Of a DNA stretch of 64,000 nt, positions 26,546 to 60,591 are shown one piece after another (position 1 is the first letter of the stretch; every line of letters begins with the position of its first letter). The stretch is from IMG/VR virus record IMGVR_UViG_3300030329_006605, positions 1 to 64,000 of that record, one strand, 5' to 3'. Under the pieces are notes generated by a model that saw only the letters and a list, made by a program, of their open reading frames with translations, had not been told where the DNA came from and ran no database searches. The position numbers and the translations under genes were made by a program. The DNA is from a virus.

Positions 26546-26953
26546 TTAACGTCCGTCAGATAAAAGTTTTCTTACTTTTGCGTGAGTGTCCTTCTCGATT
26601 TGTCTTTCAGTTTCTGAAGGTTTTCTAAATTTAGAAACATGTTTCCTAAATTCACTCATTAAAGTCTTGGTAAGTCTATTTCTGTCATCAAGAGGAACAA
26701 CCCCTATTTTTGATGCGTGAGTTTGTAAGTCAGACCTGTTAAACTCATCAAGTTGTCTTTGATATTCTTCCTCGTTTAATGTGCCATACACACTTAATCC
26801 TTCGTCCCCCCAGACCTGATCTAAGGTTGTTGGCTCATATTTTTCCTTTTCTTCTGTTTTGCCGTGGGTTTGTGATAAATTTTTTAAATTACTCTTCTTG
26901 GCAGATTTTTTGGCTGCCGCCTTCTTTGGTTTTGACTGACTTTTCTTCTTCAT
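26546..26953 (-). CDS. Hypothetical protein, K-rich N-terminus
   Basis: 135-aa ORF following the capsid terminator. Confidence 0.65.
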   Translation of the reverse strand: MKKKSQSKPKKAAAKKSAKKSNLKNLSQTHGKTEEKEKYEPTTLDQVWGDEGLSVYGTLNEEEYQRQLDEFNRSDLQTHASKIGVVPLDDRNRLTKTLMSEFRKHVSKFRKPSETERQIEKDTHAKVRKLLSDGR

Positions 26954-40632: not shown

Positions 40633-41252
40633 TAGCTTACCGCCTTAGATGCTTTTAAAAATTTTTTATTTTCTTTCTTGGCTCGCAAGAAATCTTCCTT
40701 GGTTTTTTTCCAGAACACATCACCATAGTCTATATAAATCTCTTCGCCAGCCTCAATATCTCTAATAGATAAAATCATAAAATATGGTTGAGTTGGAACC
40801 GGGTAGCATTGAGCATTATACCCGCTCTTAATCAAATAATTAATTCTTTGCTTATTCTTTTCTAGTATATTGCTTTCTTCATCTACGTTCCAGTAACCAG
40901 ATTGGCGATTATTATAATTATGTTTGTCATTTATGTAACCGCCTAAGCCTATGGGGTTTGTTGATGAAATTGGGTCACAATCTATATAAACGTCTAATTG
41001 GTTATCTCCGTCTTTCACTTTGGCTGCGGGATGCCACAAAGCATATCTTGGCATAGGCTCTTTTGGTGCAGTGCCGTCAATTTTATAAGCGTATTTTTCT
41101 TCTATTTTATCTGCGGTATAAAGATCGCCCTTGTATTCGCACATGGGTATACCTACAGGCAAATGAGCGGTTGCAAACAATCCTAGACCAGCCTTCTTTA
41201 TGTTTGAAGTTTTTATTTCTAAACCCGTTGCTAAATTATCTTGTATGTTCAT
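40632..41252 (-). CDS. SET-domain methyltransferase
   Basis: AGLGLFAT, EYKG, GYIND and RDIEAGEEIYIDYG. Confidence 0.88.
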   Translation of the reverse strand: MNIQDNLATGLEIKTSNIKKAGLGLFATAHLPVGIPMCEYKGDLYTADKIEEKYAYKIDGTAPKEPMPRYALWHPAAKVKDGDNQLDVYIDCDPISSTNPIGLGGYINDKHNYNNRQSGYWNVDEESNILEKNKQRINYLIKSGYNAQCYPVPTQPYFMILSIRDIEAGEEIYIDYGDVFWKKTKEDFLRAKKENKKFLKASKAVS

Positions 41253-41944
41253 AAAAAATCTACATCCCCCTTTTTTAAAGTAATTTTAACCTTTTCTATT
41301 ATATTTTTCTTTAAATTTTTTATTTGTTTGTATCCCGGATTCCTGTTTTTTTCCGTTGAAACATACCCCAAAGAACTGGCGACTTCTATTTCTTCTAAAT
41401 TTTTAATAAATAACCCCTCGTAAACTATCCACTCGTTCGGCTTTAAAATTTCTTTCATTTTTTTGTGTAGTTTCTTTGCGTTTCTTTCTATATCCATAGA
41501 ATCTGATAAAGCTATACGTTGAACCTCATAACTATGATCTTCTAAAGATAATGGTATTTTTATATTATATGCGCTTTTTTTTGTTTTTTCCCACCTAGCA
41601 AACAGCGGACAGCTTGAGTCTTGTTTGTCGTATATCTTGCATCCATCATGCCCTTCTTGAGCCGCACATTTCAAACATGGCCTACTATAATTTCCGTAAT
41701 TGTTTCTTATTAAATTTTTTATCTGATTAGATATTATTCTATTTAACCACGGCCCCAGAGGTTTATCCTCTTTGTATAGATGCCATTTTTCGTAAATGTG
41801 TACTCTTATTATTTGAGAAACATCATCGAAATCCATCCAATTTAAGGAAGTTAAGCTCCATTTATGCCTTCTTTTATTTATTTCTTGATTTATAAAATCT
41901 ATGGACTCCTCAAAGCTGGGTTTTTCTTTTCTTTTTTTAGGCAT
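41249..41944 (-). CDS. Phage sigma-factor-like protein
   Basis: Region 2-like DFDDVSQ...WLNRIISNQIKNLIR, a Cys cluster, and a region 4-like HTH (LKPNEWIV...EVASSLGY). Confidence 0.7.
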   Translation of the reverse strand: MPKKRKEKPSFEESIDFINQEINKRRHKWSLTSLNWMDFDDVSQIIRVHIYEKWHLYKEDKPLGPWLNRIISNQIKNLIRNNYGNYSRPCLKCAAQEGHDGCKIYDKQDSSCPLFARWEKTKKSAYNIKIPLSLEDHSYEVQRIALSDSMDIERNAKKLHKKMKEILKPNEWIVYEGLFIKNLEEIEVASSLGYVSTEKNRNPGYKQIKNLKKNIIEKVKITLKKGDVDFL

Positions 41945-49355: not shown

Positions 49356-50200
49356 TTATCTTTTGAACGAGTTATTTCCCAAACGTAGATTCCCATGTGG
49401 CCGTTAAATACTTTTTTATATTTCATGCCATTTTCATCTACAAAACCGTTGCTTTCTTTAGATTTTTCTTTTTTTGATTTACGCTGCTTAGAACCATCTT
49501 CTCCGTTGTCTGGAATTTTCATGCTAATATATTATAACGCGTATTTAGTTCGCGTCAACTCTTTGTTTAACTGCGCGAATATTTATTAATATTTATAAAA
49601 AATCTAGATTTCAGGGGGTCGGGCAGATAAAAATCAAGCCCCCACCATGAATATTCGCACACAGATACCCTTGTTTTTCAAAAAAAGGGGGTGGGTCACT
49701 TTATAGCAACCCACTTCCCAATTTCAATATGACATACAACATTAACAAAGATATAATCAACAACATAAACGTTCTTTTGTTCCTTTCATTGATATAATAT
49801 AACACACAATCAAAGTCTTGTCAAGTGATTTTCTAAAAAAAGTTATTCACAATAATGAATGACGTAGAAAAGGCAGCGCGCCCCGCGCCAAATAGGCCAA
49901 ATGCTTGTATTTAAGATATTTGGCTTATCTTAGAAATACAGCGCCAAATGCGCCAAATGCTTGTATTTAAGATATTTGGCTTATCCGAGAAATCCGAACA
50001 CCATCCCAATCAGGACGCCTATCGCTCCACCAATTAAGAAGCCACATTTGAAGTCTGCTGTTGTTTTCATATACCTTAATATACCACAGAACGAAGGTAA
50101 TGTCAAGCGATTTTTTTGGTTTAATTCTCGCCGCCCGTTTCATGCCAAACGCCTTTTACAAATGGTTATTTGGAGCTTGTCGTTAATCTGAGAAATTCAA

Positions 50201-50443
50201 TTAGCAAAAATTGTTGTAACCAGATTCCTTAAATGTTTGCCCACTGCGGTGGATTACTTTTGGCTCGCTAAAATGCTTTTCAAGAATGTCAAACTGATGT
50301 TCGCTTGTGCCTCTGTTGTTGGCGTACTCTAACATTCTGAGCTTCATGCAAGCCTTGGGAAAGGTTTCTTGCATCTTGGCGACAGCAAGATTCTCTTGCG
50401 TTGTGGTCGGTACTTCGTTAGTTGGTAGGTTTTTCTTTTGCAT
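50201..50443 (-). CDS. Hypothetical early protein
   Basis: 80-aa ORF in the early operon. Confidence 0.55.
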   Translation of the reverse strand: MQKKNLPTNEVPTTTQENLAVAKMQETFPKACMKLRMLEYANNRGTSEHQFDILEKHFSEPKVIHRSGQTFKESGYNNFC

Positions 50444-50444
50444 A

Positions 50445-50693
50445 CTAGTTAACTTTTACAAATTCATCTACATTCATTGACCAGACCGAATCAATTACTC
50501 TACCGTCTGGGCTTACTTCTATAATCTCAACGCCGCCAACCAACAACTTGGCATCGACTGCGTGCTGCAAGCACTCGTGTGCTTCCTCTAGTAATGCGTC
50601 AAATGACTTGCGACACTTGACCCGTGAGTTGAATACATCACCCAGAAACCAGAGTTCATAGGTGGCTTGCTTGTTATCTTCTTTAATCATCAT
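50445..50693 (-). CDS. Hypothetical early protein
   Basis: 82-aa ORF. Confidence 0.6.
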   Translation of the reverse strand: MMIKEDNKQATYELWFLGDVFNSRVKCRKSFDALLEEAHECLQHAVDAKLLVGGVEIIEVSPDGRVIDSVWSMNVDEFVKVN

Positions 50694-50736
50694 GCGTTCA
50701 GTATATCACAGAGGGTGGGACATCCGTAGACCCACC

Positions 50737-50970
50737 TTAAAACTTTTCTACAAAAAATTCTTCGCCCCACGCTTCCAAGTGAAATTCTTGCTTGGGTAGC
50801 CACCCCATCCAGCCATCCGATGCGCGAACGAGCCACATAGGGGGGAAGGCGTTATCATTGCGACGTTCTAAAATGAAACCTTTTGCTCCATGCTCACGAA
50901 TGCGATTTTTGGTGCGGGTAGTAGCCTTACTATTGGGGCTGATTAGAATGCGCTGTTCTTCAATGTTCAT
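50737..50970 (-). CDS. Hypothetical early protein (leaderless)
   Basis: ATG directly after the -10 box. Confidence 0.65.
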   Translation of the reverse strand: MNIEEQRILISPNSKATTRTKNRIREHGAKGFILERRNDNAFPPMWLVRASDGWMGWLPKQEFHLEAWGEEFFVEKF

Positions 50971-51059
50971 GAGTATAATATAACACATAAAGAGCCACTT
51001 GTCAAGGGATTTTTTAAGAAAAGTTATTCACAATTGTCTTGGCACAGAATAAGCTGCCC

Positions 51060-51251
51060 TTAGTACTCCAAGTCCCATACGCTGACACGCTCAAGCGGAG
51101 CCCATTCTACGGGGTGCTTTAAGCCCCACCAGTCATTTTTTGAGATCCTGATCGCCTCATAGGCGGTCATTTGGTAGTAGTTGGCTGTGCTGCCATCGTT
51201 GAAGGTGATAGTCCAATCTTGTTTGGGTTCATTGCCGAAGTCATACATCAT
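51060..51251 (-). CDS. Hypothetical early protein (leaderless)
   Basis: ATG directly after the -10 box. Confidence 0.6.
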   Translation of the reverse strand: MMYDFGNEPKQDWTITFNDGSTANYYQMTAYEAIRISKNDWWGLKHPVEWAPLERVSVWDLEY

Positions 51252-51411
51252 GCTATCAATATAACACAGAATGCCCCCCTTGTCAAGTCTTATGACACAA
51301 GTTTTTTTGACACCAGATCGGCAGCGGTTCTCATGCCAAGCAAATGGCAGGCCAAGCACGCCAAAGGCTTGTATTTAAGATATTTGGCTTATCTGAGAAA
51401 TCTTTGAGAGA

Positions 51412-51591
51412 TTAGTATTCCCAGCCACGCTCCATTGCATCAGCGCATGAGTCACAAGTGCCATGGTCAGAGGACATCTCTTTCTCAAGCCCACACCGCT
51501 TGCACTCCTTAACTACATAGTCGTATTTCCCAATAAACCGACCAACGTACTCGTCGCCACGGTTATCATGCTCATAGTAATTGCTACTCAT
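51412..51591 (-). CDS. Small zinc-finger protein
   Basis: CKRC...CDSC. Confidence 0.6.
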   Translation of the reverse strand: MSSNYYEHDNRGDEYVGRFIGKYDYVVKECKRCGLEKEMSSDHGTCDSCADAMERGWEY

Positions 51592-51766
51592 AATCATATC
51601 CCTCCATCTGATTGAAGTCAGCAAGGTCATCCATGCCTGACCCGTCACCGGGCCAACACCCACCCCACCCATCATAGGGTTGCGCCTCCTCTGGCTGCAC
51701 CTGTATCATATCACGCAAGGGGTGAGATTTGTCAAGTTTTGAATTAGGGTATTCGTTCTCATTCAT
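51584..51766 (-). CDS. Small acidic early protein (leaderless)
   Basis: MNENEY...GWGGCWPGDGSGMDDLADFNQME. Confidence 0.6.
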   Translation of the reverse strand: MNENEYPNSKLDKSHPLRDMIQVQPEEAQPYDGWGGCWPGDGSGMDDLADFNQMEGYDYE

Positions 51767-52143
51767 TGGTACAATATAGCACACAAAGCCCCATTTGTCA
51801 AGGGAAAAGTTATTCACAGTTTCGTAAAATCGACGAATTTCACACCTGAGAAATCACCCCTTTTTACGAAATCTTTTTACCAAATACCCCGCAAAAACAA
51901 GGTTATCTCTCAAAACAATTGCCCCCTTTGTCGCTCATTAATTGCCATAATTGATTGACAAAAAAGTTTGCCGCTCACGGGTGATCGACAAATAAATTTG
52001 CCGATCAAAAAAACAAGAAAATGATTGACAAACTTGGCACGAATCCGGCTGCACATTCCATGCCACCCCCCCTAGGGGGGTCTCTCATTCTGTTGCCACG
52101 CAGAGGTTGCGCCGAGTCTTAACTCAGGGGCAAGAAGCCGTGA

Positions 52144-52356
52144 CTACATCCGATTATAATCGGAGTAAGGGTCATCCATGTCTGAATGCCACTCCATGAG
52201 ATTTTCCTCACGGAAACGACGGTCAACAGGATGAGGCCGATCTAAACAGACCAACCAACCCCTTCCATCACGAGGAGAGCCAACCACTTGGCCCTTCTCC
52301 CCGTTATGGGTCACGACTTCCATGCCTAGTGCTATGGTCGTCATAGATTTCAACAT
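52144..52356 (-). CDS. Small SH3/KOW-like protein
   Basis: GMEVVTHNGEKGQVV...WLVCLD. Confidence 0.5.
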   Translation of the reverse strand: MLKSMTTIALGMEVVTHNGEKGQVVGSPRDGRGWLVCLDRPHPVDRRFREENLMEWHSDMDDPYSDYNRM

Positions 52357-52367
52357 ATACAGAACCG

Positions 52368-52490
52368 CTAGGGGTGCTTGGGCTTACGCCTAAAGCTACC
52401 CTTGCCCCTCTTGGGCTTGTGGGGGCGCGTGGCGCTACCCATCAACCCTTGAGGGTTTACTCTGGCTTTGATATTTTTGGTTTTAGCCAT
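52368..52490 (-). CDS. ArfA-like peptide (alternative ribosome rescue factor A motif), 40 aa
   Basis: MAKTKNIKARVNPQGLMGSATRPHKPKRGKGSFRRKPKHP, compared with the ArfA core KGKGSYxRKxKH. Below the ORF-track size cut-off. Confidence 0.65.
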   Translation of the reverse strand: MAKTKNIKARVNPQGLMGSATRPHKPKRGKGSFRRKPKHP

Positions 52491-52626
52491 CTTGCCAATC
52501 TAGCGTTTCTTCCACTTCTTCATCTGAAGGGATTTCAACACCCTCACAGATTTTGTCAAGGAGCTTGCGAGTGCGAGCCTCTTCAATCTCCTCCTCGTTC
52601 CATATGTCTACTATCTCATCGAACAT
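52483..52626 (-). CDS. 47-aa highly acidic early peptide (leaderless)
   Basis: MFDEIVDIWNEEEIEEARTRKLLDKICEGVEIPSDEEVEETLDWQDG, with ATG 5 nt after the -10 box. Confidence 0.6.
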   Translation of the reverse strand: MFDEIVDIWNEEEIEEARTRKLLDKICEGVEIPSDEEVEETLDWQDG

Positions 52627-52847
52627 ACCTAAATATAGCACATAAATGACCCCCTGTCAAGGGCTGAAATGCATTTTGTGAATAACTTTTTCCTTGGCAC
52701 GAATCCGGCTGCAAATCCCATACCAAATAGAGAGGGGGGTAGGGGTGCGACCCCCACCCTCATAGCCACCCCCAGCGGCTATTTGTACAAATGCTTGATT
52801 ACCAACCCGAGCAATAGCACAATCAATATTGTGGCCAATATCATAAG

Positions 52848-53051
52848 CTATTCGTCTGAGCCGAATACCATATCTTGGCAGCATTGGCATAGACCGCTAA
52901 TGCCATACTCCTTGCGTGAGAGTTCGTCATTGAACTCAAGGTTGAACTCGCCGCACTTGACACATTGACCGTTGTGCATCGCCACGGTGCGGCTACGGCC
53001 AAACATCTGCATTCCCATGTCCTCTTTGAACTGCTCTAACTTGCTTAACAT
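52848..53051 (-). CDS. Small zinc-finger early protein
   Basis: CVKC...SRKEYGISGLCQCCQD. Confidence 0.7.
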   Translation of the reverse strand: MLSKLEQFKEDMGMQMFGRSRTVAMHNGQCVKCGEFNLEFNDELSRKEYGISGLCQCCQDMVFGSDE

Positions 53052-53195
53052 ATACTATAATATAGCACAGGTTAGGCTATCTGTCAAGGGGTTTTTTTCA
53101 CTTTTTTTTCTTGGCACGAAACCGGCTGCGAATCCCATGCCAGCCCTAGTCACGCTGCGTTTAAAGCGTAGGGTCGCAACTGGCTGGGGGCGGTA

Positions 53196-53447
53196 TTAGT
53201 ACCGCCTGCCGTCTGGGTTGACCTTGCTCCACTGGTCAGCGATACCACTTGGTAGCTGGTTGAGGATACCCAACACCTCGTTGAGCCTATCCTTCTGCTG
53301 GTTGAGCAGGGCAACCGTAGCCTTGAAGTTCTGAACGTCTTGGTCGGTGAGCGTCTGCACGTCAGCCACAGCATTGAGTTGCTGGGTGAGTTCAGCGGCT
53401 TGTTGAGAGAGGGTGATTACGTTGTTGTTGTCTTTCTTGTTTGTCAT
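53196..53447 (-). CDS. Coiled-coil early protein (leaderless)
   Basis: ATG directly after the -10 box. Confidence 0.65.
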   Translation of the reverse strand: MTNKKDNNNVITLSQQAAELTQQLNAVADVQTLTDQDVQNFKATVALLNQQKDRLNEVLGILNQLPSGIADQWSKVNPDGRRY

Positions 53448-53689
53448 ATTCCTATAATATAGCACACAAATGGCCTCTTGTCAAGGGCTGAAAGGCACTT
53501 TTTTTCACTTTTTTTTCGGCATGAGAATGGCTGCAGTTTTCATGCCAACGTATAATTGTTATAATGATCCAAGGCGTGTTATTTATGATATTTGTATCTA
53601 TTTGGCAGATATGAGAAGACACAAAAAAACGCGAGCCAAGAAGAAAGGACAAAACACTTGGCTCACGTTCTGAGGAACGGACGTTATGA

Positions 53690-53887
53690 TTAGCCGTCCG
53701 TTTGCTGTAGGTAGGTTTCAACCTCGTCAGCACTTGCCATAGTTAGATTGTCAGCTTTTACTGCAACCAACTTGTTACTGTGCGACCTTGAACAACTCAC
53801 GGATGAGCTATTCAGTTGTCCCCTTACCCTTACAATTTCGTTTCCTGCTTTGTACAGGCTTCCGTTTCTTACTTCTTCGATTTTCAT
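53690..53887 (-). CDS. Small SH3-like early protein
   Basis: 65-aa ORF behind its own promoter. Confidence 0.6.
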   Translation of the reverse strand: MKIEEVRNGSLYKAGNEIVRVRGQLNSSSVSCSRSHSNKLVAVKADNLTMASADEVETYLQQTDG

Positions 53888-53930
53888 GTTAAATCTATTA
53901 TAGAGGTTATTTATGTTATGTCAAGCACCT

Positions 53931-54215
53931 TTATAGCTCCGACAGTGGCTTTGATTCAAACCACAAGTCACGCTCAACGTGTAGACCAAGCGGCCCACGA
54001 ATAGACTCAAGCTCTGCCAAGCTAAAATAACCAAGCTCCTTCTCAAAGCCGTCAACCAACCCAAAGAATGTATCTTTTCCGTCGAACTCTGTAGCATACC
54101 AAGTCCAGTTCGCGTCTGGGGTAAAGAATTTCGCAATGGCTTTCGGATCTTCGACCTCCTCTTGGGAGTAGAGTTGAGGAAGTTGCATCTGTAGGTCTTT
54201 CGTCATCAATTTCAT
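53931..54215 (-). CDS. DUF2958-family protein
   Basis: KFFTPDANWTWYATE...FFGLV..ELGYFSLAEL...VERDLWF. Confidence 0.85.
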   Translation of the reverse strand: MKLMTKDLQMQLPQLYSQEEVEDPKAIAKFFTPDANWTWYATEFDGKDTFFGLVDGFEKELGYFSLAELESIRGPLGLHVERDLWFESKPLSEL

Positions 54216-54339
54216 ATAGTATAATATAGCACAGAAACGGGGTTTTGTCAAGGGTTAGAAAGCACTTTTTTTCACTTTTTTTCTTGGCACGAAACTGGCT
54301 GCGAATCCCATGCCACCCCCCGAGGGGGGTATAGGGTAT

Positions 54340-54561
54340 TTAGGCTTTCGCCGCCACGAGGTCGTCAAACTCCCACATTGTGCCAGCCGTGTTTCCCTCT
54401 ATGTGGTCCCCGTATTCAGGGATGCGCCCCTCACGGAGCGAAGCGATGTTCTTGAGGTCTACCTCAGTGAGATGCGAATACCCTCCATTGCGTTCGGCAA
54501 TGTCCTTTTGGAGACGGCTGATGTGGGAGGCGAATAGTTCTTCTAGTTTGTTGTTCATCAT
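54340..54561 (-). CDS. Hypothetical early protein (leaderless)
   Basis: ATG directly after the -10 box. Confidence 0.6.
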   Translation of the reverse strand: MMNNKLEELFASHISRLQKDIAERNGGYSHLTEVDLKNIASLREGRIPEYGDHIEGNTAGTMWEFDDLVAAKA

Positions 54562-54641
54562 AAGGATACAATATAGCACAGAAACAGCAATCTGTCAAGG
54601 GCTTTTTTGAAGTTTTTTTAGTTCTGTGGGCGCAGCCGATT

Positions 54642-54890
54642 TCATGCCAAATCCCAATCGCTTGGACCGAATGAATCATTACCTTTATCTTTATTTTTTC
54701 TTATTTGGTCAGCTAACCCCTCAAGAATCTTACTAGGATTTGGAGAGGTTCGTAATAGACTAGCCAACAGCCCTAGATGTTCATAATCCTTATCGGGTGC
54801 GTCCTCCCACCCATGGTGTTTGGTCCATATAGCTGAACGACGTGTGCGGCTATTTTGAAATATAGCAAATTCTGGAACTTCATTATTCAT
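54642..54890 (-). CDS. Hypothetical early protein
   Basis: 82-aa ORF. Confidence 0.55.
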   Translation of the reverse strand: MNNEVPEFAIFQNSRTRRSAIWTKHHGWEDAPDKDYEHLGLLASLLRTSPNPSKILEGLADQIRKNKDKGNDSFGPSDWDLA

Positions 54891-55040
54891 TGTTATATTC
54901 TTACTAGTACCATTTTCCGTTTATAAACGCTGGGCCTTGCGGTAACTCAAACCGCACCTCACCAGTCATTTGTAACTCGGTTACAGTTACACCCTTGGGT
55001 TTGTCCTCTAGTTCGTTTAACAATCTTACGAACTCCGCTT

Positions 55041-55250
55041 CTACTGGTTCAGTGCCTTTGTCCATTCTATCTTATCTTCTAATTGTTCTAATACTTTTTG
55101 TTTGCTACCCTTAAAACCAAATTCTTCTTTAGTGATGGCGTACGCAGATCTACCGTTGCGTCTCATTCCAAGAATCTCAAGTTTAAGCGCACCCCGTAAG
55201 GCTTTTAATCTAAACAGTTCAATGAATGTAGGGTTGTCGTATTCTACCAT
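55041..55250 (-). CDS. Hypothetical early protein
   Basis: 69 aa, with AGGAG RBS. Confidence 0.65.
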   Translation of the reverse strand: MVEYDNPTFIELFRLKALRGALKLEILGMRRNGRSAYAITKEEFGFKGSKQKVLEQLEDKIEWTKALNQ

Positions 55251-55414
55251 TATACTAGCTCCTTTGTTGCTGTTGGTTTCTTGCCCTCTCGGACTAGGTT
55301 AACATCCCAGCAGACAGCATTTAATAGTTTGCTCTTATCTACGTTTCTGTTGCTTGCGATTACCGCCATCGTAAAGATGAAGTCGATTCGTTTTGATTCT
55401 TCTTTTGTCATAAT

Positions 55415-55672
55415 CTACATCCATTCAGGTTGGTAGTCGTTAAGATTCTCACATTCTAAATCATTGCAAGTGTAGCTAACGTGGTCACGAAATACATTCT
55501 TGCGATGCTCTACATCTTCAGGAGCAATGTAAGCTAAATTGTCCTCACATTCTTCCCAATCTTCTCTAATAGGGTAATCTGGCAAATCATGCACAGAGCA
55601 ACCAAGTCGAGTGTAACATACTTCATCCACGGCCTGAACGAAGTCCTTAAACGTGTAGTTTGTGTCTTTCAT
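55415..55672 (-). CDS. Acidic early protein (leaderless)
   Basis: ATG 7 nt after the -10 box. Confidence 0.65.
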   Translation of the reverse strand: MKDTNYTFKDFVQAVDEVCYTRLGCSVHDLPDYPIREDWEECEDNLAYIAPEDVEHRKNVFRDHVSYTCNDLECENLNDYQPEWM

Positions 55673-55727
55673 ATAATACAATATAGCACACAAAGCCCTG
55701 TTTGTCAAGGCATTGTGAATAACTTTT

Positions 55728-56003
55728 CTAAAGAGTGTCCTTTACGAGATGGTTGGCGATTGGGCCGAGGCTTTGCTCGGTGCGGTACTTTGTAAGCTCC
55801 CGAATCTCACTCACAAGGGTTACATCAAGAAACGCTTGCTTTGAATCGCCAAAGAAATCAACTTCTAATGTTCGCCCGTCAGCCATGATGCGGGTCACGA
55901 TTCCGGTACGACCACAAAATTCACTACGATGGTCGGTTACTTTAACCTCGTTGTTGAGGAGGAGTTGAGCTTCTTGTTGGATTGTCATTTCTTCGTTTTT
56001 CAT
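55728..56003 (-). CDS. KOW/SH3-like early protein (leaderless)
   Basis: VKVTDHRSEFCGRTGIVTRI...LEVDF. Confidence 0.6.
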   Translation of the reverse strand: MKNEEMTIQQEAQLLLNNEVKVTDHRSEFCGRTGIVTRIMADGRTLEVDFFGDSKQAFLDVTLVSEIRELTKYRTEQSLGPIANHLVKDTL

Positions 56004-56152
56004 TGATACAATATAGCACAGAATTGTCAGTTTGTCAAGGGGTTTTTTGAAGTTTTTTTCATTTTTTTCTTGGCACGAAAACTGCAGCGTTTTCCATGCC
56101 ACACCCCCCTAGGGGGTGGGGGGGCGTGGGCTAAGAATGTATTATTTATTTG

Positions 56153-56446
56153 TTATTTATCAATGTAACCTTCTTGTACGAGATAATCGCAAACATTCTG
56201 AAGTTGCCAATCTTTGATGGTGCTATTAAGGATTATTTCTTGTCGCTGGTGATCGAATAATATTGGGATCCCACCTATTACTATTCGCTCATCTCCCCTG
56301 CAACCCGGCGTGTAATAATTCGGATGAAGTTTTAATAGTTTGTATTTCTTTCTCATCTCCAGTTCAGCCTCGATAGAATCGCGGTCAAGAATACTACAAT
56401 TATAATTGTGATCCATATCATTTCCACTCTCCTTCCTTATATTCAC
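56153..56446 (-). CDS. Hypothetical protein
   Basis: ORF downstream of the gp88-like gene. True start uncertain. Confidence 0.5.
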   Translation of the reverse strand: MNIRKESGNDMDHNYNCSILDRDSIEAELEMRKKYKLLKLHPNYYTPGCRGDERIVIGGIPILFDHQRQEIILNSTIKDWQLQNVCDYLVQEGYIDK

Positions 56447-57152
56447 GGACGAATCCGTTCCATTGTTCAGGTGTTGCTACTGTGGACTTGTAAAGTAAAC
56501 CAACGATTTTTCCCATTGGGTCTAGAAACCTTAAATCGTCAGCATCTCCGTTTAACACTTCGACTCCGCCGAAATCATCAATAGGTAATGTACCACCCCC
56601 ATACACAACCGCAACGTTGACGCCACGATTCAAAACGTCTTTAACCGTAGCATCACTCACATCCTCACTGTGTGAAAATGTCAAATGATAATTCTTGGGG
56701 AGCTTACCGTTTGCATAATTAGCAATGCGTGTAAGACTCTTTGTGTAATCATAGAATTGCAAACCCTCCCATTTTTCCATAATAGACTGACCTTCAATCC
56801 GAACATTTTCCCAAGGCAAATCGCTTGTACCATTAAGACGGACGCAAGGAATTTTGTTATGCTTTGAGGCTTTCTTAACTAGAGAAAGAATCTCACGATT
56901 AAGCTGCGTCATAAACGCATCCCGCTCTTTAGCGAAGAATTTTGTTTTGTTAATTCTTGCTTGTTTAATGGGGTTCATTCGACCACGACCAGAAGTAAAC
57001 AAACACGCTGCCCGACAGCCTTCGCTGGCATTTGGGCAAGTGTTAATCACTCCGCTTGCATCACTAGGGGCAAGGTAGGTAATGCCCGTCATATATCCTC
57101 TTTTCTGTCCTTTGCGAGTTTTCGCGTTGGTATCGACTCCGAGTAGTTTCAT
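56418..57152 (-). CDS. Gp88-family protein (radical-SAM-like Cys motif)
   Basis: CPNASEGCRAAC, VRLNGTSDLPW, FYDYTK and DDLRFLD. Confidence 0.8.
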   Translation of the reverse strand: MKLLGVDTNAKTRKGQKRGYMTGITYLAPSDASGVINTCPNASEGCRAACLFTSGRGRMNPIKQARINKTKFFAKERDAFMTQLNREILSLVKKASKHNKIPCVRLNGTSDLPWENVRIEGQSIMEKWEGLQFYDYTKSLTRIANYANGKLPKNYHLTFSHSEDVSDATVKDVLNRGVNVAVVYGGGTLPIDDFGGVEVLNGDADDLRFLDPMGKIVGLLYKSTVATPEQWNGFVREYKEGEWK

Positions 57153-57165
57153 AATAATATTCTTT

Positions 57166-57636
57166 CTATGCTTGGTTTACGCGACCGTGAGATACCGCCT
57201 GTTGAACCGAGCGGCTTTTCCATTCTTCTTCATCAAAGGGCTTTGCTTGTGCAGGGTTTTCCCTCGACTCAACTCTACCCAATGAATAATCATACACGAC
57301 AGGGTTCGTGGACATGAACACCTCTGTGTTTTCCATGAGTTCAGCCAACCGCTTTTCTGCTAGTTCTTTAGCTGATGGCATCACGCCACCCTCTACACCC
57401 TTGAAACTCTCTGGATGCAAATTCAACAATAAATGTAATGATGAATTGAGAAAATACTTTTTCGCACGTTCTTCGTCTGTGACAATGTAGGAGAAAGTCT
57501 CACACATCTCATGTAACCCGCCGCTTGTTGCGCCGTGATTCCAGAATGAGTTATACTGTTGTTCCATTTCTTCTGGGTCATTAGATTCAATACCAATGAG
57601 CCAGACCGTTCCGAGTTGTTGTAGTACCAGTTTCAT
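57166..57636 (-). CDS. Hypothetical early protein (leaderless)
   Basis: ORF behind its own promoter. Confidence 0.65.
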   Translation of the reverse strand: MKLVLQQLGTVWLIGIESNDPEEMEQQYNSFWNHGATSGGLHEMCETFSYIVTDEERAKKYFLNSSLHLLLNLHPESFKGVEGGVMPSAKELAEKRLAELMENTEVFMSTNPVVYDYSLGRVESRENPAQAKPFDEEEWKSRSVQQAVSHGRVNQA

Positions 57637-57684
57637 ATATCTATAATATCGCACATAAAGTGTTAAAAGTCAAGAGACAATGTG

Positions 57685-57948
57685 TCACACCTTCCCAATC
57701 TGATGAATATAAGATTCAACATCTTCGGGAGTGCACCACCCTTTAACTGTATCGCCCCAATCGTCAGGGTCAACCATGTGATTGTTGAAGAAGCAACCAA
57801 TTTCATACAAGCCCTTTTCGCCGCCATACGAAAACTTATGTCTCACCACGGAAACTTCATAGCCATTCGGCAATTCTACATACGCCTGAACCGCACCCGC
57901 TCCGTGTGTTTTTGAGATGTCATTAAACTCCAGTTCGCTGAATTTCAT
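57685..57948 (-). CDS. Hypothetical early protein (leaderless)
   Basis: PNGYEVSVV...SYGGEKGLYEI. Confidence 0.7.
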   Translation of the reverse strand: MKFSELEFNDISKTHGAGAVQAYVELPNGYEVSVVRHKFSYGGEKGLYEIGCFFNNHMVDPDDWGDTVKGWCTPEDVESYIHQIGKV

Positions 57949-58120
57949 AATACAATATAGCACACAAACGGGGGTTTGTCAAGGGGTTTTTTTCACTTTT
58001 TTCACTTGGCACGAAATCTGCTGCCCATTTTGCGCCAAGGAAGCTCCCCCAAATCGGGGGAGCTCCATGTTTACGAGGTCCTACAGTTCTCGGGCACACG
58101 GTACCCGGAGATTTTGCATG

Positions 58121-59005
58121 CTACTCAGTAACAACCACCGCGCTATTTTTGGCGGGAGTCCAAAGCGTCTCCAGTCGCTTTTTGTTACGAGCAGCCATGT
58201 CAAACTTTTTGAGAACGTTGCCAGTCACACGGTTGGCGTATTCGAAACGCTCGTCCGCCACCTCATGGGTGAGATGCTGAGTCACCGCGTTGTTCAGGTT
58301 GTAAAGGTTACGTGCCTTATCCTCTTCGTGATCAGGATTGTTCCAAATCTTGGCGATGCTTTCGCGCACCTTCTCGCTGAACACTTTGCCATTCGCCAGA
58401 TTCTGCAAGATGATCAGACCTTGCTCCTGAGTAACAGGCTGTTGAGCCATCCGACCGTAAACGTTCAAGCTGTCCTTGAGCTTAGCCAATGCGCGATCCA
58501 AAGCGTCTTCGGTAATGATATCGCCAATGTTGATGTTGGTCGAATGCTTGCGCACCATCTCCACCTCTTTTTCAGTGGTCGTCATGCCATTGGTGCATAC
58601 GAGCCGAACCAATCCAAGAGCAAAGGAAATGCGCAGCGTGCGATCAAATGAGTTTTGAGCAGTAAGGCGATAAGCCATGGTGTCCCCAACCTGAGGAACG
58701 TCAGCCCTAAATAGGTCTCCGCCTAAATCGTACTGCGCTCGCATCTTGGCTCCACCCTCAGTCACAATGACTTTGCGTGTAACATCGATGCCTCGATCTT
58801 CGAAAGCTTTGTCTGCGCGGTTAATGATATCCTCGTGCTGTACAATTCCGTAGCGTTCGGTTGTCCAGCCAAGAATGTCGTCATTATCCTCACGGACATT
58901 CATGAAATAACCGGATTTACCTCCGAGGGTTGGGTGTGGAACCTCGACCTGCCTCACTTTAAAGTCAAAGCCGCTGTTGATTTCTTGTTTTGCTGTAATA
59001 GGCAT
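58121..59005 (-). CDS. DUF932/DUF945-family protein
   Basis: YGIVQHEDI, QNSFDRT and RLVCTNGM. Confidence 0.8.
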   Translation of the reverse strand: MPITAKQEINSGFDFKVRQVEVPHPTLGGKSGYFMNVREDNDDILGWTTERYGIVQHEDIINRADKAFEDRGIDVTRKVIVTEGGAKMRAQYDLGGDLFRADVPQVGDTMAYRLTAQNSFDRTLRISFALGLVRLVCTNGMTTTEKEVEMVRKHSTNINIGDIITEDALDRALAKLKDSLNVYGRMAQQPVTQEQGLIILQNLANGKVFSEKVRESIAKIWNNPDHEEDKARNLYNLNNAVTQHLTHEVADERFEYANRVTGNVLKKFDMAARNKKRLETLWTPAKNSAVVVTE

Positions 59006-59102
59006 CTGTAGTACTCTCTTTCTTTTTTTGGTTAGTTAGTGTTATTCTATTCTTCTATCTTACAGGGATTTTTTCCTGCGTCAAGCTTTTTTCTTAAAAA
59101 AA

Positions 59103-59265
59103 TGGTGTTGGTGTAAGGGGCTCGAACCCTCCCCCGTCCCTATCGTATCACCTTCACGCCTTGTTATGGAGCGTCCTCCCAGCGCGTCGGCTTTCAGCCA
59201 CGGGCGTTGCTGCGGTGAACGACTTTTGTCTCACAACTCGTCCAGCACTTCCATTTCTCACCAAC
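59103..59265 (-). ncRNA. ~163-nt structured RNA with tRNA-like acceptor stem, T-arm and encoded CCA
   Basis: 5' GTTGGTG pairs with CACCAAC-A-CCA 3'. T-arm GAGGG-TTCGAGC-CCCTT. Nested internal helices. Own sigma70 promoter at 59275-59304 and a T-tract after CCA. Confidence 0.7.
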
Positions 59266-59652
59266 ATTATACTATAATATAGCACACAAAAGGGGTTTTG
59301 TCAAGGGCTGGGAGGCATTTTTTTGAAAAAAGTTTTGGCACGAAACCGGCTGCCGATTTTGCGCCGAAGTCAAGAAAAAAACATTAATTTAACTTTATTT
59401 ATAGAATATAATTGTTCCCAGCCGATTCTTATTTGCATTATTACATTTCTTATTTGCGTATTTGGACATAACCTGTCAAAGTTCACCTCGCAATATATTC
59501 TCTTACTATTATTTACACTTTTATTATTCCTATCCAAAATAAATCAATAACAAATTACAATTTAATTGCTACACTTATTTTATTATATTTGAATTAAAAA
59601 AAATTGCCCCCCGTTTCCGAGAGGCAACTTTCTACAACAACTAACACTTCAC

Positions 59653-60591
59653 CTATTTATCTAAATCCTTTAGGTACTCCAATCCTTTGGACGTAATGGA
59701 ACGCCCCGTGGTTGTAATCTCCATCAAGTTGTGCTTCTGCAAATACAACTCGAAGTCCTGACGTAAGCATTGCGGAGTGAGTCCAGTTTTCGCAGAGAGG
59801 TTCGTCAAGCTGCACTCCTTCTTTTCAGTAAGGATGTTCAAGACTTGAACTTCAATACGACTTAAACCCAATGGCAATATACCGAGAGCGTGTCTTAACT
59901 CCCGCCACATATCCTTGGTCATTTCACTAGACCCACTCCGAGTGATGAACGAACTGATGTTGTTTGCCATCTTCTGTGCTTGCCGAGCATTCCCTCGCAA
60001 TACAGTAGCAATCTCATCTTTTAGCCCATCTTCAAAATCAATATCGGGAAGGTTCCGCTGAATAATCTCGCCCAACTCATTGAAGGAATACTCCTCAAGG
60101 TCAATACGGTCACAACGGTCAATCAACGCATGAAACAGTTTGTGCGCCTCTGTGGTGGCGAACATGAACGTCTGTCTCCGAAAATCTAAATCAATAGTAT
60201 AATCTTCATAAGAGAAAGAGGTGCGATTCTCTTTGTTCGGGTTAAGCATCGTAAGCAACGCCATAGAAACATCCTTGGGAAGCTCGCTCGCCTCATCAAA
60301 CAAGACGGTACACTCACGCTCATTAACGTGAGGAATCATTACTTGATTAACAAATTGTCCCACCGACTTCAAGGTGCTGCAATTCAACTCAAGGAAGGGT
60401 TTGGGGGAACCATCATAAGTAAGGTTCTTGCCCGTAGCTTTCGCCATCATCGTTTTGCCGCATCCCTTGGGTGCGATAAACATCAAATGGGGCATGATGC
60501 TAGAAGCATTGTAGTTATCTAAATGCCATGCGAGTTTTCGCTTGGCGATGGGTTGCCCAACAATATCGGGCCAGTATTCTGTATTAGTCAT
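59653..60591 (-). CDS. ruvB: RuvB-like Holliday junction branch-migration AAA+ ATPase
   Basis: IVGQ, APKGCGKT, VLFDEA, FATTE, LRGNARQA, LGILPLGL and TTTGR. Confidence 0.85.
   Translation of the reverse strand: MTNTEYWPDIVGQPIAKRKLAWHLDNYNASSIMPHLMFIAPKGCGKTMMAKATGKNLTYDGSPKPFLELNCSTLKSVGQFVNQVMIPHVNERECTVLFDEASELPKDVSMALLTMLNPNKENRTSFSYEDYTIDLDFRRQTFMFATTEAHKLFHALIDRCDRIDLEEYSFNELGEIIQRNLPDIDFEDGLKDEIATVLRGNARQAQKMANNISSFITRSGSSEMTKDMWRELRHALGILPLGLSRIEVQVLNILTEKKECSLTNLSAKTGLTPQCLRQDFELYLQKHNLMEITTTGRSITSKGLEYLKDLDK

Follow-up and report, generated by a model that had tools for sequence, protein, structure and literature searches.

The first 64 kb of a 94-kb IMG/VR virus record (IMGVR_UViG_3300030329_006605, estimated to be 60% complete), referred to below as the window, carry thirteen 31-bp palindromes, or dyads, all located within positions 49860-59366, in a block of early genes transcribed from the minus strand. 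Twelve of the thirteen stand upstream of promoters of the form cccTTGACA-N17-TGTGCTATATT. The dyad is a conserved working part of these early promoters. In the common view, phage early promoters need only the host sigma-70 polymerase; here most of them bear an extra element that is conserved, symmetric and phased. Terminase, portal and tail fibre genes were recognised in the record, along with rIIA and rIIB homologues, an ERCC4 nuclease, PhoH, sugar-nucleotide enzymes and a RuvB-like AAA+ protein. The window starts with a 3853-aa open reading frame (ORF) coding for a tape-measure-type protein (PF10145). The RuvB-like protein (59653-60591, minus strand) is full-length with a C-terminal winged helix, is encoded directly beside the dyad array and is kept in the close clade at 60-67% identity. 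The early cassette block (50001-60000) forms a compositional island of 42-48% G+C against 34-36% in its flanks. A nucleotide search against 50,697 phage records identified no cultured relative, returning only tRNA matches or nothing, and with the terminases of Bacillus and Clostridioides phages that of the record shares only ~24% identity.

The palindromes were first noticed in a reading of the bare sequence, the original prediction. A search of the window for TGG-N10-GC-N-GC-N10-CCA with at most one mismatch returns exactly the same thirteen sites, while dinucleotide shuffles give 0.83 sites on average and 3 at most. No copy of the pattern occurs outside the early block in the whole 94-kb record. 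The constant 15+1+15 layout described for the window copies extends to the relatives of the phage: in ~1.03 Mb of lineage DNA, inverted heptamers are separated by a 17-nt spacer in 122 of 122 cases and by any other spacer of 9-26 nt in none, a count free of bias for extra copies and whole genomes only, the loci having been fetched with a pattern that requires the spacing. The centre reads GC.GC in 117 of these 122 pairs, a feature not required by the search. The anatomy of the element was derived from 80 oriented, non-redundant copies of the lineage. They define a tripartite dyad, T-TGGCAYG-N6-GCWGC-N6-CRTGCCA-A, or at finer resolution T-TGGCA(C>T)G-R-N5-GC-W-GC-N5-Y-C(G>A)TGCCA-A. The outer heptamers, the GCWGC centre and the flanking T and A are conserved (T at -1 in 73/80 copies, A at +32 in 75/80); the conserved flanks therefore make the unit 33 bp long. 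Position 6 of the arm is C in 62 copies and T in 18, and a purine follows CACG in 59 and 64 of the 80 arms on the two sides. The N6 interiors vary, with only a weak GGRCGK preference.

Across the 80 copies, 205 of 480 interior pairs are complementary, against 193 +/- 10 when partner arms are shuffled; pairing at the null level indicates no selection for a hairpin or a cruciform. At position pair 10/22, A:C mismatches dominate in the lineage, and an Rfam search with the element returned no match. The suggestion that often unpaired spacer bases argue for a protein-binding site rather than an RNA hairpin is thus borne out. The dyad could nevertheless be imagined as a structured nucleic acid, i.e. 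an RNA hairpin acting as terminator or as an RNase III site, a cruciform in the DNA, or a hairpin promoter of the N4 type. In the window, G:U pairs number 38 for the minus strand and 11 for the plus strand, the minus strand gives the better fold, and the giant ORF first hinted at an N4-like virion polymerase. However, lineage-wide pairing is no better than with shuffled partners, an A-run rather than a U-run follows the element, and Rfam is negative. Moreover, the dyad comes after the putative terminators of one unit and before the next promoter and is therefore presumably for the most part untranscribed, which points to a role at the DNA level. This explanation is hardly tenable. Two of its forms were rejected: the RNA hairpin or RNase III site, because the G:U skew of the window is a family-consensus effect that vanishes across the lineage and Rfam gave no match, and N4-like hairpin promoters, because the 3853-aa ORF is tape-measure-like (PF10145) and not a virion RNA polymerase. 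The dyad is thus almost certainly a docking site for a protein, common to the whole phage lineage, and not a hairpin.

This lineage is known from metagenomes. An exact-pattern scan of IMG/VR identified at least 80 loci with the dyad, many with 3-9 copies each. A terminase about 40-70% identical to that of the window phage (37-72% over all the searches) was present in 10 of 13 source records searched; because it is common to them, the dyad arrays are assigned to one deep uncultured phage lineage. Its fullest records measure 142 and 162 kb, the latter being 96% complete. Three relatives that were fetched in full contain 7, 15 and 6 dyads, in one 9-15 kb block per genome; a single degenerate match lies outside the block in G002. 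Among 185,579 species genomes, the sole multi-copy match was a 20.9-kb phage contig binned in an uncultured Pseudomonadales metagenome-assembled genome (MAG), the remaining matches being singletons at about chance level. All 7 dyads of this MAG are on the phage contig and none in its other ~3.1 Mb, and a second contig also carries the phage terminase. The MAG encodes rpoN; binning is weak evidence of a host link, as contigs may be misbinned or co-binned. The phage terminase was absent from 400 other genomes sampled from the order of the MAG. The dyad is thus a site specific to phage DNA, named bacterial genomes having nothing but singletons at the level of chance.

The promoters that follow the dyads form a homogeneous class. 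An independent consensus scan found 15 promoters with 11/12 matches and a TG extension, and one more with 12/12 matches and no TG. At all 17 promoters of the class in the record, an ATG is located 5-9 nt after the -10 box, and 14 of these 17 ATGs open ORFs of 47-767 aa. The early genes are accordingly leaderless, since the ORFs open at ATGs so close to the -10 boxes. Many late genes have AGGAG-type Shine-Dalgarno sequences. The type of translation start is thus split phage-wide between early and late genes, and the coexistence of leaderless early genes with Shine-Dalgarno-led late genes in one phage makes temporal control through translation directly testable. At many promoters of the window (49796-59304), the spacer that separates the -35 box from the -10 box may also form a small stem, ACAAA-N4-6-TTTGT, between TTGACA and TGTG; it resembles the commonest subclass of the promoter-early stem-loop (PeSL) cassettes discussed below.

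The distance between dyad and promoter is constrained. In the window, the gaps to the -35 box are 10, 20, 21, 24, 24, 31, 32, 32, 33, 34, 34 and 35 bp, so that the twelve copies said to lie roughly 10-35 bp upstream of a sigma-70 -35 box over A-tracts do occupy this range. The interval is filled by A-tracts (AGAAAAAAAGTGAAAAAAA) or by a TTATTCACA box in either orientation. Five DnaA-box-like 9-mers, identical to each other, occur in the window at 49843, 51024 and 51810 (TTATTCACA) and at 52677 and 55714 (TGTGAATAA); they sit between the dyad, or a gene end, and the -35 box, and recur in the relatives L005, L025 and L085. In the lineage, gaps measured from the dyad end to TTGAC cluster at 12, 20-21, 30-35, 39-44, 48-52, 60-63 and 69-72 bp. 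Their periodicity peaks at 9.8-10 bp (Rayleigh R = 0.67), against a maximum R of 0.37 in 5000 uniform simulations over periods of 7-14 bp, and the phase is kept across contigs despite spacers that differ in length and sequence. These gaps demonstrate phase-locking of the dyad, apparently to one helical face relative to the -35 box. If the promoter spacer is taken as 17 bp and transcription as starting 7 nt past the -10 box, the dyad centres derived from the gaps fall near -62, -72, -82, -92, -102, -112 and -122 in the lineage, and at -61, -71, -72, -75 (twice) and -82 to -86 in the window. The link between the element and early promoters proposed in the first reading therefore stands: dyads precede early sigma-70 promoters and are phased to their -35 boxes.

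Along the direction of transcription, the array starts with a copy (59336..59366) in which one arm is weakened (CGGCGCA) and which precedes the -35 box at 59304 by 31 bp; the promoter (59276..59304, minus strand like all those below) reads TTGACA-N17-TATATT with a TG extension and is followed by an ATG 8 nt after the -10 box. The second copy (58007..58037) is followed after 24 bp by the -35 box at 57982 (promoter 57954..57982, leaderless 87-aa gene 57685-57948), and a GC hairpin, GGAGCTCCCCC...GGGGGAGCT, ends 2 nt before this dyad on the minus strand. The third (56071..56101) has the full consensus, adjoins a poly-C/poly-G hairpin and is separated by 32 bp from the downstream -35 box at 56038 (promoter 56010..56038), which serves a leaderless 91-aa gene (55728-56003). 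One arm is decayed in the fourth (54619..54649), which has its -35 box 20 bp downstream, at 54598 (promoter 54570..54598, leaderless 73-aa gene 54340-54561). The fifth (54285..54315), again with the full consensus and adjoined by the hairpin CCCCCCTCGGGGGG, precedes the -35 box at 54251 by 33 bp (promoter 54223..54251) and a leaderless DUF2958 gene (53931-54215). The sixth (53517..53547) precedes the -35 box at 53484 by 32 bp (promoter 53456..53484, leaderless 83-aa gene 53196-53447), and the seventh (53112..53142; full consensus) that at 53087 by 24 bp (promoter 53059..53087, leaderless 67-aa gene 52848-53051). The eighth (52695..52725), with TGGTATGGGATTTGCA as its minus-strand arm, is separated by 34 bp, over a TGTGAATAA box, from the -35 box at 52660 (promoter 52632..52660, leaderless 47-aa gene 52483-52626); inspection of the site agrees with its earlier reading as TGGTATG-GGAT-TTGCA on the minus strand.

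The ninth copy (52035..52065) has the full consensus and an adjoining hairpin but no consensus promoter downstream. The non-coding stretch that follows it (51871-52034) contains iteron-like repeats, TGATCGACAAAT/ATTTGCCGATCA and TTTGTCGCTCA/TTGATTGACAAA, and may be a replication origin or another operator cluster. The tenth copy (51308..51338) lies 21 bp upstream of the -35 box at 51286 (promoter 51258..51286, leaderless 63-aa gene 51060-51251). In the eleventh (51040..51070), one arm is decayed with TGG and GC kept; 34 bp with a TTATTCACA box separate it from the -35 box at 51005 (promoter 50977..51005, leaderless 77-aa gene 50737-50970). The twelfth (50117..50147), also with one decayed arm, is the closest to its promoter, 10 bp upstream of the -35 box at 50106 (promoter 50078..50106, leaderless 29-aa ORF 49981-50070). 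The thirteenth (49860..49890) is degenerate and lies 35 bp upstream, over a TTATTCACA box, of the -35 box at 49824 (promoter 49796..49824), downstream of which there is only a 10-codon ORF. Three promoters, at 55708, 53924 and 51801, lack the palindrome; as far as the shown flanks reach, they also lack an upstream terminator gap. Beyond the window, further promoters of the class occur at positions 67139-67166 and 74031-74058 of the record, with the ATG 5-9 nt after the -10 box. A 22-bp repeat, GCTTGTATTTAAGATATTTGGC, is present in three copies on the plus strand (49903, 49959 and 51367), each just upstream of a dyad in the gene direction. The rIIB and rIIA homologues are encoded at 63254-64066 and 64829-67132 of the record, both on the minus strand; rIIA is driven by a leaderless early promoter without a dyad, and a GHKL-type N-box was read by eye in the N-terminus of its product.

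On its upstream side, the dyad borders the presumed end of the preceding unit. Of the 80 oriented dyads, 44 are preceded by a strong hairpin (-10 kcal/mol or stronger) in the adjacent 48 nt; 27 of these 44 hairpins, or their T-runs, stop 0-5 nt short of the dyad. The 3' end of a tRNA directly precedes several other copies. The dyads of the window often adjoin a poly-C/poly-G hairpin on this side; the window hairpins have no U-tracts. The hairpin GGTGGG(T/A)C-N7-GTCCCACC, downstream of gene 50737-50970 (50650-50740, minus strand), is kept in the relative G003 (10620-10690), and hairpins of this kind stand in for the -35 region at some promoters of relatives.

The early block is mosaic: homologues in G002 or G003 were found for only about one third of the ORFs listed for it, and they occur in a different order. 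The dyad could consequently be viewed as a linker for homologous recombination that shuffles the early cassettes, as has been proposed for PeSL, protein binding being secondary. The reordering fits such a role, as do the in-place inversion of one copy (described below) and the combination of GC hairpin, AT-rich tract and strong promoter, which corresponds to the PeSL description (Arbiol et al. 2010, PMC2839356). A linker, however, needs neither a tripartite dyad, nor helical phasing, nor three conserved blocks with free interiors. In the one cassette compared with G003 at the DNA level, homology spans from the ATG to past the downstream hairpin and neither starts nor ends at the dyad. A linker function is thus improbable.

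Whether arms occur alone was examined with one arm and the centre (TGGCAYG-N6-GCW) as anchor, leaving the partner arm free. The unselected partner scores at least 7/9 in 118 of 138 anchored cases, with G2 kept in 91%, G3 in 88%, G14 in 91% and C15 in 95%. Poor partner arms (0-3 of 9) number about 12, against a rough estimate of about 9 single sites expected by chance; the two figures being close, there is no excess of single sites. Isolated heptamer half-sites elsewhere in four genomes likewise occur at chance level only. These comparisons show an element that is, as far as its conservation can tell, obligately two-armed. It appears to work in both directions. In G005 (26733-26763; L122), the dyad is the exact reverse complement of the commonest form of that genome between unchanged flanks, an in-place inversion of the 31-bp unit. 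At the centre, A occurs in 44 copies and T in 30, with no orientation bias. Because of the inverted copy and the unbiased centre, the element is presumably functional in either orientation, and its orientation independence can be taken as shown at the level of these comparisons.

The arms had been described as sigma-54-like -24/-12 elements. This resemblance is real and extends further than first described. The GG and GC doublets are 10 nt apart, the -24/-12 spacing, in 13 of 13 window copies with at most one mismatch, and each arm, Y-TGGCA(C/T)G-R-N3-N-K-GC-W, matches the sigma-54 consensus over about 12 positions, including the T before TGG (73/80), the purine after CACG and the GC-W spacing. 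It fails at the T of position -14, in the TGC of the -12 box, which is present in 40/80 forward arms (50%) and 16/80 backward arms (20%). By comparison, this T is present in 28 of 29 intergenic, ChIP-supported Salmonella sigma-54 sites (our own count from the table of PMC3844500). Its frequency varies among relatives, from 0/14 arms in L034 to 12/14 in L134 and 6/6 in L075. The arm variants TGGCATG and TGGTATG also occur among real sigma-54 sites (PMC3844500).

Other observations bear on the identity of the factor. A search of the phage's own record and of five related ones, of which one is 96% complete, revealed neither a sigma-54 DNA-binding domain nor an enhancer-binding protein. The AAA+ protein beside the array aligns end to end with RuvB and has no GAFTGA. 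The arms are not followed by a leadered gene, the downstream genes starting at the sigma-70 -10 box distance given above. Finally, a sister clade (L136 11471-20820; L143 7577-12646) encodes a RuvB-like protein 54% identical to that of the window and carries, at the same position of the cassette, a dyad of ~33-35 bp with a GC-rich core, a GCWGC centre and different outer boxes, GACTTA/TAAGTC. In its composite form, the GC-rich core with its GCWGC centre is framed on both sides by TAAGTC-N13-GACTTA. As the layout is kept while the outer hexamer is swapped, the pattern points to a regulator that co-evolves with its operator and not to a universal host sigma factor; it is the pattern that such a regulator would produce.

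An ordinary sigma-54 promoter, as the resemblance might suggest, is contradicted by the scarcity of the -14 T, by the obligate dyad, by single boxes no more frequent than chance, by the negative search of the phage records for a sigma-54 domain or enhancer-binding protein and by the different boxes of the sister clade; assignment of the element to the class of sigma-54 promoters is not supported. A less conventional use of sigma-54 is possible, namely the trapping of its polymerase. The dyad would then be a two-way docking site for the host sigma-54 RNA polymerase, each arm being a -24/-12 site bound in an activator-less closed complex that would serve as cassette boundary or roadblock, assist the neighbouring sigma-70 promoter or compete with it, or act as a decoy draining sigma-54 from host stress responses. 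The canonical spacing of GG and GC within Y-TGGCA(C/T)G-R arms, the tolerated variants found in real sites (PMC3844500), the TGG and GC retained in the decayed arms of the window, and the TGC present in both arms of some relatives (L134, L075) are in line with it. The motif is also kept over a deep lineage with varied promoter details, which fits a universal host factor; the sole MAG with such phage contigs has rpoN; and a sigma-54-like promoter is cited for Pseudomonas phage YuA (PMC10914365). Conversely, the dyad is obligate with no excess of single boxes although a single site would suffice, the -14 T is missing from most arms (all 14 in L034) and the -15 T is nearly absent. TTGGCA is replaced by GACTTA in the sister clade within the same architecture, the phage records searched contain neither sigma-54 domain nor enhancer-binding protein, and the neighbouring AAA+ protein is RuvB-like with no GAFTGA. 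In addition, overlapping -12 boxes presumably cannot hold two holoenzymes at once. Docking of the sigma-54 polymerase is possible but less likely than the symmetric regulator considered below. It is equally a tentative idea that a lineage of large aquatic phages parks this polymerase in either orientation as a phase-locked boundary or regulator, or drains sigma-54 from stress and defence regulons. If true, the sigma-54 closed complex would have a novel role as a DNA-bound protein with a structural or regulatory function, and a virus would be making a tool of the complex formed in the absence of an activator.

The phage also encodes putative sigma factors of its own. Two sigma-70-family-like proteins were detected, one with region 2 only (41249-41944 of the window, minus strand) and an ECF-like one with regions 2 and 4 (86152-86745 of the record, minus strand). 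The dyad might accordingly be a bidirectional promoter for such a factor, with TGGCAC as -35 and CGTGCC as -10 box on either strand, whose late read-through and antisense transcripts would silence the early genes. ECF sigma factors recognise promoters of the form GGAAC-N16/17-CGT, and GGCAC...CGT is loosely similar. The spacer would however be 18 nt long, and neither the conserved GCWGC centre nor the phasing to the sigma-70 -35 box would be explained. Middle and late genes do not have the motif upstream of them, and several late genes are preceded by GTGTAA-like motifs instead. The likelihood of this reading is remote.

The explanation favoured here, to which a probability of roughly 0.45 is attributed, is that the dyad is read by a symmetric regulator at a DNA-level docking site on the early promoters. 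The palindrome would be an operator or upstream element for a two-fold symmetric protein and part of a repeated early-gene cassette ordered, along transcription, as terminator hairpin or tRNA end of the prior unit, 33-bp dyad, phased A-tracts or TTATTCACA box, sigma-70 promoter and leaderless ATG. The protein would read three blocks 12 bp apart and, bound to a single helical face with respect to the -35 box, could act on RNA polymerase through bent A-tract DNA. A single factor might thereby control the early regulon as a whole, by raising its expression or, as is more probable of a phage product, by turning it off. In favour of this explanation count the enrichment of the dyad and its confinement to the early block, the selective conservation of its blocks, the obligate pairing of the arms at a fixed spacing, the orientation independence, the helical phasing, the sister clade and the restriction of the site to phage DNA. 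We infer that the reader is a dimer, either phage-encoded or a host factor other than the sigma-54 holoenzyme; the direction of its effect is deduced in the same way. Among the three options of the original prediction, i.e. a sigma-54 polymerase trap, dual-sigma control of early genes and a dimeric regulator with an RpoN-box-like specificity, the last one fits best, given the obligate dyad and the sister clade. If the reader turned out to be a hitherto unknown factor, it would control the entire host-takeover gene set at one stroke, and the dyad would offer a handle to pull it down.

Several observations weigh against a symmetric regulator. The half-site match to the sigma-54 consensus (YTGGCACGR and GC-W with exact spacing) is estimated at ~20 bits, and such a match by an unrelated protein would be a remarkable coincidence that is hard to credit. 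Two window copies, those with a gap of 24 bp, are off the main phase. Early promoters fire before any phage protein is made, so that an activator must be a host or an injected protein; for a repressor site, a centre at -62 to -122 is unusual. Lastly, no candidate binder was found among the ~40 phage proteins scanned, a Pfam and PHROGs search revealing no dimeric helix-turn-helix (HTH) candidate. Only two early-block proteins are common to both clades, an L5 gp82-like protein (PF25735) and a DUF932 protein. The gp82-like protein, the only small early protein that both clades have, is encoded in 17 contigs, always within the array. Its predicted structure (pLDDT 80, pTM 0.74) shows a beta-rich domain that includes a single basic helix and for which no DNA-binding relative is known; there was no Foldseek match in the PDB at E <= 0.001, and the best VIA-align Z was 2.2. 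Conserved proteins of 362 and 231 aa had no useful sequence matches in the PDB.

No description of a sigma-54-like palindrome on phage early promoters was found in the literature, and the closest known systems each share part of the design. Enhancer-dependent sigma-54 promoters, such as glnAp2, pspA and the Salmonella ChIP sites (PMC3844500), have the same YTGGCA(C/T)GR with GC-W 10 nt after GG. In contrast to them, the arms described here invariably come as head-to-head pairs with a common centre base, and most lack the -14 T; the phage records revealed neither an enhancer nor an activator, the arms are not followed by a leadered gene, and single sites do not occur in excess of chance. Phage YuA, as cited in PMC10914365, offers another phage element resembling a sigma-54 promoter; from what is cited there, it is a single directional promoter and not an array of dyads attached to sigma-70 promoters. 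In its position, the dyad is reminiscent of activator sites. Those of class I are exemplified by CRP, which binds at -61.5, -71.5, -82.5 or -92.5, and the p4 site of phage phi29 is centred at -82 of promoter A3. As in these systems, an upstream dyad occupies one helical face in ~10-bp steps, with phased A-tract or bent DNA in between; unlike them, the site is tripartite and 33 bp long instead of 22 bp, and the steps reach about -122.

The nearest relatives in overall design are the PeSL cassettes of the T4-type phages RB49 and phi1 (Arbiol et al. 2010, PMC2839356). Both systems consist of intergenic cassettes repeated in a hyperplastic early region, in which a strong sigma-70-like promoter is preceded by an AT-rich tract and by poly-G/poly-C stem-loops, which in the window phage would end the prior unit; the small ORFan genes that the cassettes flank are arranged differently from one relative to the next. 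They differ in that PeSL end in a Shine-Dalgarno sequence and an ATG whereas the genes of the window are leaderless, and in that the present lineage is unrelated to T4-type phages, with a tape-measure protein and with a terminase that shares only ~24% identity with its counterparts in cultured phages. Above all, PeSL have no phase-locked tripartite dyad, which is here an additional, separately conserved part. By this analogy, the cassette would be a phage early regulatory cassette of PeSL-like design, and the added dyad would be what is new in it.

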